Below are positions 26,063 through 32,392 of a DNA stretch of 64,000 nucleotides, in pieces; within the stretch, counting starts at the first letter, position 1, and each line of letters starts with the position of its first letter. The stretch lies in the sequence record NC_041871.1; one strand, 5' to 3'. The DNA is from Escherichia phage Murica. Below the pieces are notes generated by a model, which saw only the letters and a list, made by a program, of their open reading frames with translations, was not told the origin of the DNA and did not search any database. The position numbers and the translations under genes were made by a program.

Positions 26063-27610
26063 TTAGATAAAACGCTTGAACATAGAAGGTGATGAGATTG
26101 ATGGAATCACACAAGGAAGTGCTACCTCCTCTTTCTCCAGGAAATTAATCGCAGAAGCTACACAGTCTGCCCAGTCGTCTTTTCTGTTAAATGTTGATCT
26201 TTCTCCGTTGAATTTTTCAAGTTCAGTCAGAAATGCTTCCAGAGTATCAGGATGGAAACTGGATTTTACAATCCTCACCATTCCTTGTTGTGCAAGATTG
26301 GCAAAAGGTGAGAACCTTGTCAGTTTAGATTTGTTGGAAGGCATTGGGTCTTCTTCAACCCTGAACCCTTCGGCGAGCAAGGATCTGGATGAGGTTAAGA
26401 ACTCACTCTTACCTGCCTGACCAGGGTCCACAGAGAATACGATTATGCAATCATCACCATCAAACTGCGCCTGTTTCCTGATGATCACATCTCGTTCACC
26501 AGCCTTTTTACAGAACTTGCCTTCCAGACCTGTGGAATACCTCCCGTCATCCACGTTCTCAGGACAATAATCACCGGACAGGTAATAAAAGCCGTCGCTA
26601 TCTTTACTTACCTTAATACTGGCGGTAAAGTCAGGAAATTTATTACCGGAAGTTCTCTCGGTTCCTGCCTTATCCCATGCCCTGCAAGATACTGATCCAA
26701 TGGGTACTCTATCGGCATCACGAAGGAAAGATCTTTGAAAATAGTTTGCACCCTCAGGCTTTGCAAACCAGTTACCATGAAGAAGCTGAGCTTTTTCCAG
26801 TTCCGGCAGACCTTCAAGGAAAGCAAGGTATTCTGGGTTGTCTCTTAAGCAGACAGGATTATCGAATATTGTTGCGCCTATAAACGAGAATGACAACGGT
26901 CTTGGCTTGATCTCTACGCCAAGTCCGTTAACCGTGGTGTATTTCTCTATCAACTCTTCTTTAGAGTCTCCCCAGATAAATTCACCGTCGCGTCGGATAA
27001 AATATCTTTTCTTACCGCATTTCTCCGGATCTGGATACCCTTCATCGTCCAACCACCATCTAACCAGTTTGGCAAGCATGTGTTCTGAATCGGGGTTACA
27101 GCTGATAACCATTCTTGATGGATACTTTGACTGAGATCGCAGACGAGACATCAGATAGTCTATCTGCTCCCATTCGAACTGCGTGCCCTCATCGAAGCAA
27201 ACCATGGTGTACTCAAGCCCCTGATGGTTAAGCTTATCTTGTACATACTCCATATGGCAGTATTTTACAACAGCTCCCTTTTTGCTTCTATCCCACTTAC
27301 CAGTGTTCGGATCAAACCGTGGAAAAATGAACTTATGATCCTTCTCTCTGAACTTTGGCTTAATGTTTTCAGGCAGATCACTGTAAATAGCTACTGCTTT
27401 AGGCCATAGTCCACCCTCACCTTCCAACTGTGGGGTTGTTCTTCGGAACATAACCACAGAGCTGTGGGGGTCATCAATAATTTTAAGTGGCATCAACTGC
27501 AAGAGGAACGACTTGCCAGACCCTGCGGCACCGCCGATTACCAAAATATCTGCATCGTTTTCTAGGATCATCTTCTGCTTTTCAGAACACGGTCCGTAAA
27601 TCTTAGACAT
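26063..27610 (-). CDS. terL: terminase large subunit
   Basis: 515 aa; N-terminal Walker A GGAAGSGKS, ATPase then nuclease-domain organisation; strong RBS. Confidence 0.85.
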   Translation of the reverse strand: MSKIYGPCSEKQKMILENDADILVIGGAAGSGKSFLLQLMPLKIIDDPHSSVVMFRRTTPQLEGEGGLWPKAVAIYSDLPENIKPKFREKDHKFIFPRFDPNTGKWDRSKKGAVVKYCHMEYVQDKLNHQGLEYTMVCFDEGTQFEWEQIDYLMSRLRSQSKYPSRMVISCNPDSEHMLAKLVRWWLDDEGYPDPEKCGKKRYFIRRDGEFIWGDSKEELIEKYTTVNGLGVEIKPRPLSFSFIGATIFDNPVCLRDNPEYLAFLEGLPELEKAQLLHGNWFAKPEGANYFQRSFLRDADRVPIGSVSCRAWDKAGTERTSGNKFPDFTASIKVSKDSDGFYYLSGDYCPENVDDGRYSTGLEGKFCKKAGERDVIIRKQAQFDGDDCIIVFSVDPGQAGKSEFLTSSRSLLAEGFRVEEDPMPSNKSKLTRFSPFANLAQQGMVRIVKSSFHPDTLEAFLTELEKFNGERSTFNRKDDWADCVASAINFLEKEEVALPCVIPSISSPSMFKRFI

Positions 27611-27897
27611 TAACCTCTCTCCTTTGGAAACAGTGTTCTAATATAGTCTTGCAAAATGATCAATTTAGCTCTATCATTGCTACAAGACAGATTATTATCC
27701 CTCATAATGCCAGAATTCACTGCATCTGGCGCACCTTTCTTCAAAGGCATAGCTTTAGCAGGTGGTTTCATGGCACCTTCCGGGGGTTTAACAATCAACC
27801 TTCCTACATCCGGAGGGTCAATCTTGTATTCTCTCTCAACGCTGGTTGCACACCCACATAATAACAAGCACACAATAAACAGTGTAGCAACTCTCAT
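27610..27897 (-). CDS. outer-membrane spanin lipoprotein (Rz1-like)
   Basis: 95 aa; signal peptide with lipobox LLCGC, Pro-rich mature part; coupled to the upstream i-spanin. Confidence 0.6.
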   Translation of the reverse strand: MRVATLFIVCLLLCGCATSVEREYKIDPPDVGRLIVKPPEGAMKPPAKAMPLKKGAPDAVNSGIMRDNNLSCSNDRAKLIILQDYIRTLFPKERG

Positions 27898-28292
27898 CTA
27901 CCCTCCTGATTAATACTCTCATTATAAATATCTATAAGCTGATCAGGAAGTGTTGACTTCTTACCCTCAGGTGACTGGAGGTAAATAATCTGCTTTTCTT
28001 TACCTGCCTTCTCAGCCATATTTAATTTATCCTGTAGATCAGAAAGGGATTTTTCAAGGTTTTTAACCTCCTCTGCGTGGCCCATTTTAATTTTGTCGGC
28101 CTGCTTTTGTTGCTGATCAAGGATCCGTTCCCACTTTAACTCTGTTGCTGACACACCTTCTTGGTAGGCATCATTAAGCTTAGAGTTAAACCAATACACG
28201 GCCCCAAGATAAGCTGTACCTATCGCAGCTGCAAAAACTAAACCTTTTATGATCCCTCTATACCTGCTCAGCCATGTTAAAACTGAAATCAT
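27894..28292 (-). CDS. inner-membrane spanin (Rz-like)
   Basis: 132 aa; N-terminal TM helix then charged coiled-coil region; overlaps the o-spanin start. Confidence 0.6.
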   Translation of the reverse strand: MISVLTWLSRYRGIIKGLVFAAAIGTAYLGAVYWFNSKLNDAYQEGVSATELKWERILDQQQKQADKIKMGHAEEVKNLEKSLSDLQDKLNMAEKAGKEKQIIYLQSPEGKKSTLPDQLIDIYNESINQEGR

Positions 28293-28397: not shown

Positions 28398-28667
28398 TTA
28401 TCGAGGCACTCGGTGGATGATTCTAACAGTAACTGCGTTTTCATTCATCAAGTATGCATCTACATCTCTGTAAATATAAAACTTCTGCTCACTATCAACA
28501 ACACAAGCTACCGCCCCTTCAGAGTTGTCTTCAAAAAAGACCACCACTGCATCGCAGCTGAGTTCATGATATGACTCTCGAAGATTTACAGCCAGAGGAT
28601 TGAAATCGTCACGAAAATCTACGGTATGGGTTGGATTTACACGCTCTACAATTTTAAGTGTATACAT
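28398..28667 (-). CDS. hypothetical protein
   Basis: ORF track 28398..28757 trimmed to ATG at 28665-28667 (AAGGAAC RBS); the longer form would overlap tRNA-Pro. Confidence 0.45.
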   Translation of the reverse strand: MYTLKIVERVNPTHTVDFRDDFNPLAVNLRESYHELSCDAVVVFFEDNSEGAVACVVDSEQKFYIYRDVDAYLMNENAVTVRIIHRVPR

Positions 28668-28713: not shown

Positions 28714-28790
28714 TGGTCTCCACGGAGTGATTCGAACACTCGACCTCCTGATCCCAAATCAGGCGCTCTACCAAGCTGAGCTACGCGGAG
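28714..28790 (-). tRNA. tRNA-Pro (anticodon UGG)
   Basis: cloverleaf folded by hand: 7-bp acceptor, T-loop TTCGAAT, anticodon loop TTTGGGA, encoded CCA. Confidence 0.8.
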
Positions 28791-28801
28791 TATTTATTAT
28801 T

Positions 28802-28876
28802 TGGTGGCCCTGGGTGGAATTGAACCACCGTCTGGCGATTATGAGTCGCTTGCTTGAACCTTCCAGCTACAGGGCC
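28802..28876 (-). tRNA. tRNA-Met (anticodon CAU; could be lysidine-modified Ile)
   Basis: acceptor GGCCCTG/CAGGGCC, anticodon loop CTCATAA, T-loop TTCAATT, encoded CCA. Confidence 0.75.
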
Positions 28877-28877
28877 T

Positions 28878-28953
28878 TGGTGCTGATGGCAGGACTTGAA
28901 CCTACAACCTATTGATTACAAATCAATTGCACTACCGATTGTGCTACATCAGC
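28878..28953 (-). tRNA. tRNA-Thr (anticodon UGU)
   Basis: acceptor GCTGATG/CATCAGC, anticodon stem ATTGA/TCAAT with loop TTTGTAA, T-loop TTCAAGT, CCA. Confidence 0.8.
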
Positions 28954-28960
28954 AAAAAGG

Positions 28961-29057
28961 TGCTAGGTGATGGAATCGAACCACCTATGTATTCAACGAC
29001 TACCTCGTCTATTTTCAGGATTAAAAATCCTCGCCCTTGCCAAAGGGCTTACCTAGC
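28961..29057 (-). tRNA. atypical 97-nt tRNA-like element (anticodon unresolved, possibly UUU; very long variable region)
   Basis: perfect 7-bp acceptor pairing GCTAGGT/ACCTAGC, canonical T-arm GGTGG-TTCGATT-CCATC and D-arm, but 65 nt between; no encoded CCA. Confidence 0.45.
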
Positions 29058-29155
29058 TCAGTATGTTGACCATGTTGCTAGTCGGCGATGACGACTGTAA
29101 CATTTGATAATCCGGTTCTGCTTCCGGCTTTCGCTTAATTACAAGGTCAACAATG

Positions 29156-29246
29156 TGGCGGAGAGTAATGGAATCGAACCATCATCGAGTCATCCTCAAC
29201 GGGACGGTTTTCAAGACCGCTTGAGCACCATTGCTCCCTACCCTCC
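29156..29246 (-). tRNA. tRNA-Ser (anticodon UGA), type II
   Basis: 91 nt, acceptor GGAGGGT/ACTCTCC, anticodon loop CTTGAAA, long variable arm, T-loop TTCGATT, CCA. Confidence 0.8.
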
Positions 29247-29360
29247 TTTATAAATTATACTGATAATGACACTGATTTTCGAGCAGTTAGTGACTAGTAT
29301 AAACGACGATAAATATCAATGCCATTATCTGTATTATTTATGCATCTAAAAATATAAATT

Positions 29361-29447
29361 TGGTGGGGAGTGGTGGAGTCGAACCACCCGAGTCGCAATG
29401 ACAATAGATTTACAGTCTACACCGCTACCTCTACGGGATAACTCCCC
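29361..29447 (-). tRNA. tRNA-Tyr (anticodon GUA), type II
   Basis: 87 nt, acceptor GGGGAGT/ACTCCCC, anticodon loop CTGTAAA, long variable arm, T-loop TTCGACT, CCA. Confidence 0.8.
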
Positions 29448-29451
29448 AATT

Positions 29452-29526
29452 TGGCACCCCGTACTGGACTCGAACCAGTGTCAACGGCTTAGAAGGCCGC
29501 TGCTTTATCCACTAAGCTAACAGGGC
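29452..29526 (-). tRNA. tRNA-Arg (anticodon UCU)
   Basis: 75 nt, anticodon loop CTTCTAA, T-arm ACTGG-TTCGAGT-CCAGT, acceptor with two G-U pairs, CCA. Confidence 0.75.
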
Positions 29527-29622
29527 ACTGGGTGGCTTTCTTTTACACCTTAGCCGCCAGAAAAGGTGGGAGACCATGTTTACAATATTACACTGTTAAG
29601 CAAAGTTTGTCAAGAAAATATT

Positions 29623-29961
29623 TTAGCTATTGCTAACAGGCTGTATTTCTGTAGTAAATGGCATAAAAGGTGCTGGTTTTTCAGCCTCTTCCACTACCAC
29701 CTCTTCCTCTTCACCAAACATCTCATCATATTCTTCCTGCATTCGGTCTGCCTTATCAAGAACATACTCTGCAATGCTTTGACGAATATTTTGTTTGGTT
29801 TTCGGGTCCAACATCAGCTCTCTTAAAACTTTGTGAGCTTCTGGAACCATCGCTATAAAAGATTCCTTCATATCAAGGATGTTCTTCTCTAGCTGAATGG
29901 CGTTGGACTCCTCTTTCAGAGGTCTGCCTCTACGGCGACGCTTTTTAGTTGTATCCGCCAT
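29623..29961 (-). CDS. small protein with N-terminal AT-hook-like basic motif (KKRRRRGRP) and acidic C-terminus
   Basis: ORF track 29623..30081 trimmed to the ATG at 29959-29961, preceded by GGAGGAAAC. Confidence 0.45.
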   Translation of the reverse strand: MADTTKKRRRRGRPLKEESNAIQLEKNILDMKESFIAMVPEAHKVLRELMLDPKTKQNIRQSIAEYVLDKADRMQEEYDEMFGEEEEVVVEEAEKPAPFMPFTTEIQPVSNS

Positions 29962-30305
29962 GTTTCCTCCATTATCACGTGATAGGTGGATTTTATCATA
30001 GCAAATACTGATTGTCAAGTTCGCCGCAGGGTGGTATTCCCTGCGACTTGTCCAGCGTCCTGGACCAGCAAGACCCAACAAGTGGGTTACCAGAGCCCAT
30101 TACCGCACTTTGGCTCGACCTTATTACAGGTTGGCCGGGGTCACATCGTCATGTGCTGGCTGCCCCTACCATTTTAAGTGTGGTGCACTATCAAGCCCTC
30201 TAAGGGGAACTCAGCCTTCTCCGAACCCTGTTTCAAAGCATCCGGAGATAAAGCCATCAAATTCATCTTTAAATTGGATATTCATCATGATACACGAAAA
30301 CAACC

Positions 30306-30548
30306 TCATTGTAAAGCACAAATAAATAAAACATACTTAATTTGTTTGTTATCAGGCTCAGGGTAGAAGTAGAAGATCTTGCTATCACCGATCTGAACAC
30401 CACCATCCCAACAGCATAGCCCATAACCAGTATTCATACAAGCTAAGTCGTTGGCAAAATCTATTGCATCATCCAGTGCACGAAATTCACCTTCATCTTC
30501 TAAATAATCCTCATTCATGGAACGAAAAACGAGCTTAACCTTAAACAT
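30306..30548 (-). CDS. hypothetical small protein
   Basis: 80-aa ORF, ATG start, weak RBS. Confidence 0.35.
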   Translation of the reverse strand: MFKVKLVFRSMNEDYLEDEGEFRALDDAIDFANDLACMNTGYGLCCWDGGVQIGDSKIFYFYPEPDNKQIKYVLFICALQ

Positions 30549-30624
30549 AGCATTACCTGTAGACCTCGTAAGTTAAAATTGCATCACATCATATTGCAGA
30601 TCTTATCAGGTAACACTATTTTTG

Positions 30625-30834
30625 TCAACAGATTCCGGCCTTATCCTTCCTGTCTGCGTATTCTTTAATCGCAACCTCATCTGCATTAGTGACCAGGTCT
30701 TCAAAGTAACTCTCAAGCTCCTCGTCAATGTCAGGAGACCAGCTCTTTTTCCTGTCAGTGTGAATTGCAGACTTGTTGAACTTATTACAGTTCTTTGCTA
30801 CCGGGTTGTTCATTAAGCGCTCCTCAGCGTTCAT
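30625..30834 (-). CDS. hypothetical small protein
   Basis: 69-aa ORF, coupled to the upstream gene. Confidence 0.35.
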   Translation of the reverse strand: MNAEERLMNNPVAKNCNKFNKSAIHTDRKKSWSPDIDEELESYFEDLVTNADEVAIKEYADRKDKAGIC

Positions 30835-31402
30835 AGTAAATCTTATTTAACATTACCTCATCCTTTGCAGAAAGGATATCAAGATATGCATCACCAAATC
30901 TTCCTGCAACAACCTCTGCATGATACATCACTTCGTTAACATCGTCAAGAGTGATAACCGGATGACCATATCTTTCTGAATATTGTCTCAGGGTGCGATG
31001 TAACGAGTCGTCATCATATGCAGACTTTTTAATATCACAAACACGACGAATAGCCTTGATGTCGAAAAAACCTGTGCGATACCACCCAAGAAAAAGGTTT
31101 CGTGCAGTGTCAACATCTACATTGATACCATCAAGAACCTTATCTACAAGATAGCTGTCATCCTTTGGACCAGCGTCCTTAGTGCGAATGTAGTTGCCAT
31201 CTTTTCCAGGCGACATCTCCTTCTCATCCCCAACATGCATGCCATCATTTGGCGGTGTTAGCCACTTATCCGGATGCTTACGATCACGAGCGTTAGAATG
31301 ATTACGCTGGAAACCTGGCTTCCACTTGAAAGTTTTCTCCATCTGTTCTTCATTCTGATAACGTTTTGCAATCTTTTCACGGTCATCTTTGCGTGGACTC
31401 AT
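30824..31402 (-). CDS. hypothetical protein
   Basis: 192-aa ORF with a strong GAGGAGG RBS. Confidence 0.5.
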   Translation of the reverse strand: MSPRKDDREKIAKRYQNEEQMEKTFKWKPGFQRNHSNARDRKHPDKWLTPPNDGMHVGDEKEMSPGKDGNYIRTKDAGPKDDSYLVDKVLDGINVDVDTARNLFLGWYRTGFFDIKAIRRVCDIKKSAYDDDSLHRTLRQYSERYGHPVITLDDVNEVMYHAEVVAGRFGDAYLDILSAKDEVMLNKIYYER

Positions 31403-31884
31403 AGCTGCCTCCTCTTCAAGTTATAGAAAAACTCGCTGTATCGCTTTGTAACGAGCTTTTCTATCAAACTGGTGCGATTGCCTTACTTGGTATAGTTTAT
31501 ATGGCTGTGGAGCGATTTAGGGGCCTCATTGTCCGTTTCCACACATAAACTTTATCCAAACTCGCGCGGGAGGCTCTCAACCGACTCCTTACGGCGCTGG
31601 CAAGCTTTCGTCGGTGGTCCACATTAGTGCTCGGCCTTTGGCCTGCGCCGCTTCGCTCCCACACATGTTAACAGACCTGCATGTGTGCACTATGGAGGCC
31701 CGGCATCTCGCCCCTCGTAGGCGAGTGCCAATGAAGGGCCGACACTACCTATAGAAAGTAATAAATTTAAAACATGGTACTTAGGATCTAGTATATTCTA
31801 CATAAGTTAAGTATATGTACTTAGTACCATAAGTACTAGATCTTTTATTTTTTATTATTTAGTTATTTTAGTTATATTCTTTAT

Positions 31885-31967
31885 GTGTCCGTATCACGGA
31901 CAGTTAGTGTCCGTATTACGGGCAGATGTGTCCGCGTGACGGACAGTGGTGTCCGTATCACGGACAG
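31885..31967. repeat. four tandem copies of a palindromic 19-bp iteron (GTGTCCGTATCACGGACAG), period 21-22 bp
   Basis: copies at 31885-31903, 31907-31925, 31928-31946 and 31949-31967; each contains inverted half-sites GTCCG-N5-CGGAC. Confidence 0.85.
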
Positions 31968-32041
31968 TTAATAGTTTCTGTTCCATGGTGAACATAAAAC
32001 ATACAAACCCTTATAGTACAGATATTTAAGTTTTTACTGGT

Positions 32042-32392
32042 CTAACCAGTTGTTGACATTCGAATAACTTCTTCTGGTGGCAAAACTTTGGAAAATGTGC
32101 ATCTTTTACCTCTCCCTTGTGTGGATGTTTCAACCACTCCTGCACATTCTAAAGTTTTAACGCACGCTGCTGCTTTTGTTTTCTTTATCCCAACATCTGC
32201 TGCAATTTTCCTTGTGCTTGGTGTGAAGCGGGAATTTCCTCCAAGCTTATACCAGTTGTGCAGGTAGCAGTATACAATCTTGTCATACAAGTCAAGAACA
32301 ACAACCTCCCCAGTTGTGTCATTCAAAACTTTTGACATAGATAGTATTTCAAGGGGGACTTTAAGATATAGCAGCTTATCCCCATCTTTCAT
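32042..32392 (-). CDS. putative helix-turn-helix DNA-binding protein
   Basis: 116 aa with AGGAGAT RBS; HTH-like segment STRKIAADVGIKKTKAAACVKTLECAGVV; lies next to the iteron array. Confidence 0.4.
   Translation of the reverse strand: MKDGDKLLYLKVPLEILSMSKVLNDTTGEVVVLDLYDKIVYCYLHNWYKLGGNSRFTPSTRKIAADVGIKKTKAAACVKTLECAGVVETSTQGRGKRCTFSKVLPPEEVIRMSTTG

Follow-up and report, generated by a model that had tools for sequence, protein, structure and literature searches.

A candidate small terminase with an AT-hook-like arm encoded upstream of terL in rV5-like coliphages

Which gene of the rV5-like phages codes for their small terminase subunit (TerS)? The question is raised by a small gene at positions 29623 to 29961 of the window analysed here, a 64,000-nucleotide (nt) stretch of Escherichia phage Murica (NC_041871.1). 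A sequence-only reading had described its product as a small early protein with an AT-hook-like basic N-terminus and a strongly acidic tail, and had compared it with nucleoid-protein antagonists and DNA mimics. The results presented here point elsewhere: the 112-amino-acid (aa) protein is probably the TerS of the rV5-like phages, in a stripped-down form that carries an AT-hook arm in the place of the helix-turn-helix (HTH). The assignment is a prediction that we consider likely because of the remote homology of the protein to the helical hairpin of known TerS proteins, the position of its gene upstream of the large terminase gene (terL), and the lack of an annotated TerS in these phages. Ring assembly, DNA binding and TerL binding are putative activities of the protein.

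The open reading frame (ORF) is real and lies on the minus strand, which the sequence-only reading had left unsaid; it runs from an ATG start (29961-29959) to a TAA stop (29625-29623), and its 112-aa product is MADTTKKRRRRGRPLKEESNAIQLEKNILDMKESFIAMVPEAHKVLRELMLDPKTKQNIRQSIAEYVLDKADRMQEEYDEMFGEEEEVVVEEAEKPAPFMPFTTEIQPVSNS. A 152-aa version from a TTG start was rejected as the gene, because the homologs begin at MA... and because the predicted promoter, P074, falls inside the extension. Over the 900 bp surrounding the gene, Escherichia phage navn was 100% and phage rV5 (Vequintavirus) 99.9% identical, and by its sequence the window is of the Vequintavirus type, that is, from an rV5-like coliphage. 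The gene is rV5 ORF74 (YP_002003572.1), and its product is identical to a 'hypothetical protein' of rV5 and navn. The gene table of the rV5 paper lists ORF74 with 112 aa, 13,099 Da and a pI of 4.9, and with no homolog or function.

Homologs were found to span more than 120 clusters at 90% identity, with the gene locus present in 224 phage records and the protein cluster of the 112-aa protein seen on 667 contigs. Among the 60 of the 224 phage records that were listed, the gene appeared as 'hypothetical protein', as 'Phage protein', without annotation, or once as 'RNA ligase', and the same range of labels was seen among all named members of the cluster.

The polarised charge of the protein is evident from its composition. 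Residues 1-16 include eight K/R and one D/E (net +7) and contain the sequence KKRRRRGRPLK, and residues 75-95 (QEEYDEMFGEEEEVVVEEAEK) include 11 D/E and one K/R (net -10), in agreement with the acidic C-terminal half recognised by the sequence-only reading; the protein as a whole has a pI of 4.9. This layout is beyond chance, since the family is widely conserved and G12-R13-P14 is invariant down to 21% identity. In the alignment of close relatives (A1) the N-terminal half was nearly invariant (K..R..GRPLKEESNAIQL.KN...), the acidic region was variable in sequence and length, and the C-terminal motif KPFTT[DE]I was kept, with P101, F102, T104 and I106 conserved in at least 90% of the sequences. 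In the diverse alignment of the wider family (A2, 28 sequences, down to 21% identity) G12-R13-P14 were the only invariant residues and R9 was conserved in at least 90%. The acidic stretch kept its composition across A2, with neither its sequence nor its length conserved, and distant clades carry PLTTEIREY or GIVVNFGG as their C-terminal motif.

The RGRP core with K/R flanks, which is the core feature of the AT-hook, is thus present in the 112-aa protein and invariant in its family, and the N-terminus had rightly been called AT-hook-like. Relatives carrying KRGRGRPKK reached 11.9-16.1 bits on the Pfam AT_hook model (PF02178), whose gathering cut-off is 17.4, and the 112-aa protein itself gave no PF02178 match at E values up to 10. 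Judged by these features the protein probably binds DNA, and the sequence-only reading was reasonable in expecting so. The AlphaFold2 (AF2) model obtained with the diverse alignment showed residues 1-15 as unstructured, followed by two helices (Table 1). Its mean pLDDT was 78, with blocks over residues 21-80 at 88-91 and a monomer pTM of 0.41; the C-terminal 30 residues were of low confidence, and the acidic linker, with a pLDDT of ~60, was without secondary structure.

The homology to small terminases was found through an intermediate protein. A search of 1.84 billion representative proteins with the family profile returned 22 proteins at E < 1e-3, which were of ~100-145 aa save two fragments and P0047, a protein of 207 aa (E 3.6e-4). 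Overlapping residues of P0047 match PHROG 2538 'terminase small subunit' (5e-9) and PHROG 3330 (1e-7), and in the Protein Data Bank (PDB) the protein matches the PaP3 TerS (7joq) at 1.4e-3 and also the NV1 TerS (6w7t). The profile of P0047's own 26 relatives (A3) matched both of these solved TerS structures (7joq at 2e-10 and 6w7t at 7e-8), and it contains a LuxR-type HTH ahead of the region matched by the target family.

When A2 was aligned with A3 using hhalign, a probability of 88.7% was obtained (P 2.5e-6) over 43 columns, corresponding to residues 29-71 of the 112-aa protein. The score was 43.4 for the real alignment and 7.6-13.9 for the reversed and 20 column-shuffled controls, and after removal of P0047 the probability was still 85.3% (P 5.9e-6). 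A scan of the 464 stop-to-stop segments of the window with the A3 hidden Markov model (HMM) recovered the target ORF alone, at E 4e-4 (next best, 0.57), and the same scan without P0047 gave it an E value of 2e-3. The matched region corresponds to the alpha4-alpha5 hairpin of the PaP3 TerS, residues 64-105, which builds the nonameric ring of that protein (PMC7672466).

Weaker signals of the same kind were found in direct searches. A few distant members of the family matched the TerS PHROGs 2538 and 7344 weakly (E 0.0025-0.007), these being the commonest annotated secondary matches. Compared with PDB sequences, A2 placed 7joq second and 6w7t fourth; the E values of these entries with the family profiles were non-significant (0.2-0.8), a lead only. 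The 112-aa protein itself matched none of the curated TerS models in Pfam, NCBIfam and PHROG, its only match being PHROG 3330 (E 8e-47), which is labelled 'unknown function'. A search of 5.8 billion proteins with the family profile enlarged the family and found neither a functionally named member nor a bridging sequence. The source label 'phage shock protein A' on the family member P0040 looks like a coiled-coil artefact.

The position of the gene is the second line of evidence. The homolog was located upstream of terL and on the same strand in all 16 of the fetched loci that hold both genes (16/16), and the TerL proteins of these loci are 29-60% identical to that of the window outside the rV5 group. 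In a group of 110-125-kb phages (L006 and L019-L022), with TerL ~40-44% identical, the gap between the two genes is 0 bp, the stop codon of the homolog abutting the start codon of terL. The gap is 17 bp by gene call in L025 (6390 to 6408), where a tblastn extrapolation gave ~1 kb, and 54 bp in L007, where an intervening '34-aa ORF' is in fact exon 1 of terL. It amounts to ~250 bp in L023 and L024, and to 0.9-3 kb in L009, L010, L013, L015, L016 and the rV5 group, where tRNAs, small ORFs and spanins take up the space. The window has a gap of 2.0 kb (29623 to 27610), with the order terS candidate, seven tRNAs, an 89-aa ORF, i-spanin, o-spanin and TerL. No related loci were found for P0043 and P0037.

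Other TerS candidates near terL were considered and rejected, namely the 89-aa ORF at 28667..28398 and the ORFs at 30306-31402, which belong to PHROGs of unknown function and gave no TerS-HMM signal.

A TerS annotation was absent near terL in the records of rV5, navn, HeinrichReichert from the BASEL collection (manually curated) and EPFV3, and one Vequintavirus record has the i-spanin gene at its start. In the Felix O1 paper of 2010, wV8, phiEa21-4 and rV5 are said to have 'single terminases' (PMC3185647). A literature search found no paper on a TerS of the Vequintavirinae; one paper claims TerS coding sequences (CDSs) in 'all' its coliphages and names no locus. A full-text search for 'AT-hook' together with 'small terminase' gave matches that, judged from their titles, concern other subjects, and PHROG 3330 was not among the entries in the supplements of a homo-oligomer preprint. 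A CRISPRi-ART study of the rV5-like phage EdH4 was aimed only at capsid and rII genes, and no usable Vequintavirus expression time course was found in the literature.

Several observations weigh against the TerS assignment. The homology is limited to 43 residues of a helical hairpin, with a probability below 90%, and the direct comparisons of the family with PDB sequences were non-significant (E 0.2-0.5). Structure-fold searches gave no informative match, and a two-helix hairpin is a generic fold. The loci all belong to a single broad group of large myoviruses whose TerL and portal genes are related, so that inheritance alone could account for the gene order. In this phage the gene is preceded by its own strong promoter of the sigma70 type and lies 2 kb from terL behind tRNAs, in a region dense in such promoters, an arrangement that would also fit an early gene, and its homologs are often embedded in tRNA arrays. 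A further objection concerns the HTH, which a recent review names as the one feature common to all phage TerS (PMC9611059). The 112-aa protein has no HTH, and a basic RGRP arm is found in its place: the hhalign match, which starts at residue 29, covers none of the HTH of A3, and the domain must be absent because only ~15 unstructured residues precede helix 1. This last objection is softened by gp1 of the gene transfer agent (GTA) RcGTA, a validated TerS that lacks an HTH and binds DNA non-specifically (PMC6854486), indicating that the HTH is not strictly required.

Some of these observations would suit an AT-hook protein without a part in packaging, of a regulatory or architectural kind. Such a protein could be a dimeric coiled-coil factor that acts on AT-rich phage or host DNA and thereby controls replication or transcription, for instance at the switch to late genes. 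In its favour are the invariant RGRP arm, the gene's own strong promoter, the many sigma70-type promoters nearby, and the neighbouring gene for a winged helix-turn-helix (wHTH) protein and iteron-like array; a generic two-helix hairpin without informative fold matches is compatible with it as well. However, a regulator would leave unexplained both the specific match to the TerS core profile, which the controls did not reproduce, and the stop-start abutment with terL across a whole clade. It would also leave the rV5-like phages without a TerS, and no matches to regulator families were found in Pfam, PHROG or NCBIfam. Of the alternatives it is the most probable, and still an unlikely one.

Lower still stands the function suggested by the sequence-only reading, that of an early host-takeover protein which would act as an antagonist of H-NS or HU, or as an acidic-tail DNA mimic blocking restriction or another defence that binds DNA. 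Phages do encode small acidic proteins of this type, such as Ocr and gp5.5 of T7 and Arn of T4, and the bipolar charge layout, together with a sigma70 promoter that could fire early, would be in keeping with it. The searches of Pfam, PHROG and NCBIfam, however, revealed no similarity to Ocr, Arn or gp5.5-like families, and the acidic stretch is a short and variable linker with a pLDDT of ~60, hence not a rigid folded DNA-like surface. The best conserved parts of the protein are instead the basic arm, the hairpin and the PFTTEI motif, and the gene has kept its place beside terL in distant phages with different hosts, which is unusual for a host-specific takeover gene. Moreover, the validated PaP3 TerS has an acidic, disordered C-terminal tail of its own (residues 122-152; PMC7672466), so that the bipolar layout is itself TerS-like. 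Taken together, these points make a takeover function highly improbable. Least probable of all is an RNA-binding protein tied to the tRNA cluster, serving tRNA maturation, protection or transcript regulation through its arginine-rich N-terminus, since the location of homologs in or beside tRNA arrays (rV5 group, L009, L012, L013, L015 and L016) and the presence of RNA ligase, kinase and phosphoesterase genes of the tRNA-repair type within 3-5 kb are set against a terL-abutting clade whose nearest tRNAs lie 2-3.5 kb upstream with several genes between, a locus without any tRNA in 6.9 kb (L007), a tRNA position that varies (upstream, downstream or both) while the link to terL is constant, and the lack of similarity to RNA-binding families in Pfam and NCBIfam.

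If the 112-aa protein is the TerS, its mode of action can be outlined from what is known of other small terminases. The hairpins would assemble into a ring of roughly 8-12 subunits, from which the flexible N-terminal AT-hook arms would project to insert themselves into AT-rich phage DNA at its minor groove. Several weak arm contacts could then sum by avidity and mark concatemers for the first cut by TerL. Marking of this kind would be of low sequence specificity, and would therefore suit a circularly permuted genome and headful packaging; the DNA of rV5 is circularly permuted (PMC3606486), which indicates headful packaging. The acidic linker may keep the arms soluble or auto-inhibited, may shield them, or may repel DNA from the body of the ring. 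The PFTTEI motif, a candidate beta-strand of the stalk or TerL-binding peptide, might form a beta-barrel stalk, like the strand that follows the hairpin in PaP3, or might recruit or regulate TerL. Many TerS relatives of the A3 type begin with MGR.P ahead of their HTH, from which it can be speculated that the arm is ancestral and that the HTH was lost here. To the complete picture, a TerS that recognises DNA by minor-groove AT-hooks on ~8-12 arms, serves as the packaging-initiation factor of rV5/PVP-SE1/phiTE-like large myoviruses, and possibly has a second, nucleoid-associated role on phage DNA before packaging, we give about even chances. An early-capable promoter together with an AT-hook could allow the latter role.

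The expression signals of the gene, the parts of its product and the neighbouring packaging and lysis genes are collected in Table 1. P074 is a strong predicted promoter of the sigma70 type, whose -10 region, TGATAAAAT, is similar to the TGGTAAAAT element in the rV5 promoters P036 and P051, located before structural genes, and is also like the proposed late motif TggTAaAAtA (rV5 Table S4). The early expression supposed by the sequence-only reading is therefore no more than putative. Promoters of the sigma70 type are dense across 29.5-33.5 kb, where the scan found 23 and 12.6 were expected.

Table 1. Features of the terS candidate and of the genes between it and terL (positions in the 64,000-nt window).
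Feature	Position	Strand	Basis
Proposed terS CDS (112 aa; rV5 ORF74 ortholog; PHROG 3330)	29623..29961	-	ORF and translation
Shine-Dalgarno GGAGG, 4 nt ahead of ATG	29966..29970	-	Read from sequence
Promoter-like site named P074 in the rV5 paper, TTGACA-17 nt-TAAAAT with upstream TG	29990..30018	-	Scan, 11/12 matches; rV5 Table S4
Promoter-like site P(tRNA), right behind the stop codon of the terS candidate	29585..29613	-	Scan; rV5 Table S4
AT-hook-like basic arm KKRRRRGRPLK, residues 6-16	29914..29946	-	Alignments A1, A2; sub-threshold Pfam AT_hook in relatives
Predicted long helix 1, residues 16-51	29809..29916	-	AF2
Predicted helix 2, residues 57-82; with helix 1, the proposed oligomerisation hairpin	29716..29793	-	AF2
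Stretch aligning with the PaP3/NV1-type TerS alpha4-alpha5 hairpin, residues 29-71	29749..29877	-	hhalign
Acidic stretch QEEYDEMFGEEEEVVVEEAE, residues 75-94: end of helix 2 into low-confidence linker	29680..29739	-	Charge count; AF2
Conserved C-terminal motif PFTTEI, residues 101-106	29644..29661	-	Alignment A1
Seven tRNA or tRNA-like genes in a cluster that separates the terS candidate from the other packaging genes	28714..29526	-	ARAGORN; Rfam
i-spanin	27894..28292	-	PHROG 4297
o-spanin	27610..27897	-	PHROG 1267; lipoprotein with LLLCGC lipobox
TerL, 515 aa, uninterrupted; proposed partner	26063..27610	-	Pfam Terminase_6N and 6C; PHROG 979, E 6e-208

The sequence-only reading had placed the gene immediately upstream of a tRNA cluster, and this was borne out: a tRNA-Arg gene (29526..29452, minus strand) begins 96 bp downstream of the terS candidate, and six other tRNA or tRNA-like genes come after it. 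One of these, a 99-nt tRNA-like gene at 28959-29057 (minus strand), was given a 4-base anticodon by ARAGORN and scored 35.5 bits on the Rfam tRNA model. The navn annotation calls it tRNA-OTHER, that of BASEL tRNA-Lys(AAA), and the rV5 annotation lacks it; this tRNA may contain an intron or be unusual in some other way. Arrays of tRNAs were found on one or both sides of the homologs in several lineages, with 15 tRNAs in L012 and 11 in L016, and tRNA genes seem to be gained and lost preferentially at the boundary immediately ahead of the packaging genes.

Two observations concern the annotation of the neighbouring genes. The o-spanin gene is annotated in navn as 'putative large terminase subunit', a misannotation that is propagating. 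The terL gene is split by one or two introns with HNH or other homing endonucleases in rV5, navn and HeinrichReichert; the terL of the window is thus the intron-free allele of a known intron hotspot, and distant relatives are equally variable.

Upstream of the gene, the region 30019-30290 forms a GC-rich gap (0.50-0.55) with no convincing ORF between P074 and the next gene upstream. Checked as an RNA element, it gave no Rfam match and only modest fold z-scores relative to shuffled sequences (-2.4 on the minus strand and -1.9 on the plus strand). In an annotation guide, rV5 is said to contain 'wastelands with no apparent genes'. A second GC-rich stretch (0.51-0.59), with short ORFs only, is located at 31475-31775. 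A sub-threshold Rfam match to the Listeria small RNA rli43 at 31694-31939 (24 bits, with a threshold of 100) is probably noise.

Farther upstream, at 31885-31970, there are four tandem repeats of 21-22 nt (GTGTCCGTATCACGGACAGTTA), each with the inverted repeat TGTCCGT..ACGGACA, for which nine matches were found in the window and 0.09 were expected. The repeats adjoin an AT-rich stretch at 31775-31924 (GC 0.29) and lie just downstream of the wHTH gene (32392..32042), which belongs to PHROG 12838 'replication initiation protein'. The region 31885-31970 thus has the look of an array of iterons or operators, and may be a replication origin. Table S3 of the rV5 paper oddly gives the wHTH protein, gp79, as structural by mass spectrometry.

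Phage-therapy and reference collections, including BASEL and the O157 typing phages, commonly hold rV5-like phages (Vequintavirinae and relatives). Naming their TerS would close an annotation gap, as no TerS was annotated in the rV5-like records examined and the gene is carried as 'hypothetical'. Its identity would help to set genome start points and to predict the packaging mode and the risk of transduction, and would offer a starting point for engineering the specificity of packaging. If the assignment is true, a TerS with a single AT-hook would widen the accepted modes of DNA recognition by packaging motors, and the protein would sit between the sequence-specific TerS of phages and the non-specific, HTH-less TerS of GTAs.

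Among known systems, the closest likeness is to the TerS of the PaP3/NV1/SF6 type (7JOQ, 6W7T; PHROG 2538), with which the protein shares the hairpin (residues 29-71 here and 64-105 in PaP3), a short overall length, an acidic and flexible C-terminal part, and a gene located upstream of terL. It differs from them in lacking the N-terminal HTH, having only ~15 residues with the RGRP arm before the hairpin, and in what follows the hairpin, which is an acidic linker and then a short hydrophobic motif here, but a beta-strand and then an acidic tail in PaP3. The sequence identity is also too low for a direct match to the models of that family.

RcGTA gp1 is likewise a minimal TerS of ~100 residues whose coiled coil or hairpin starts almost at the N-terminus, without an HTH and with non-specific headful packaging. 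It has no reported AT-hook-like arm and comes from a GTA rather than from a virulent 137-kb myovirus, the likeness being one of description. The gp16 proteins of T4 and 44RR (PF11053) partner a T4-type TerL, and the TerL of the window is of the Terminase_6N/6C type; they also have a long helical hairpin as their core, with disordered N- and C-termini (PMC9611059). In contrast to the protein described here, gp16 is longer and has a predicted HTH, and no match of the 112-aa protein to PF11053 was found at E values up to 10.

In bacteria, AT-hook-like arms occur in H-NS and Lsr2, and HMGA proteins join AT-hooks to an acidic C-terminal tail. The K/R-flanked R-G-R-P core of the AT-hook (PF02178; HMGA) is invariant in the target family, but here the Pfam threshold is not reached, each chain has a single hook, and the hook is joined to a TerS-like hairpin. 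On these sequence comparisons the protein does not appear to be an ordinary member of the TerS families, and would be best described as resembling a TerS core of the PaP3/SF6 type combined with the absence of the HTH seen in GTAs.

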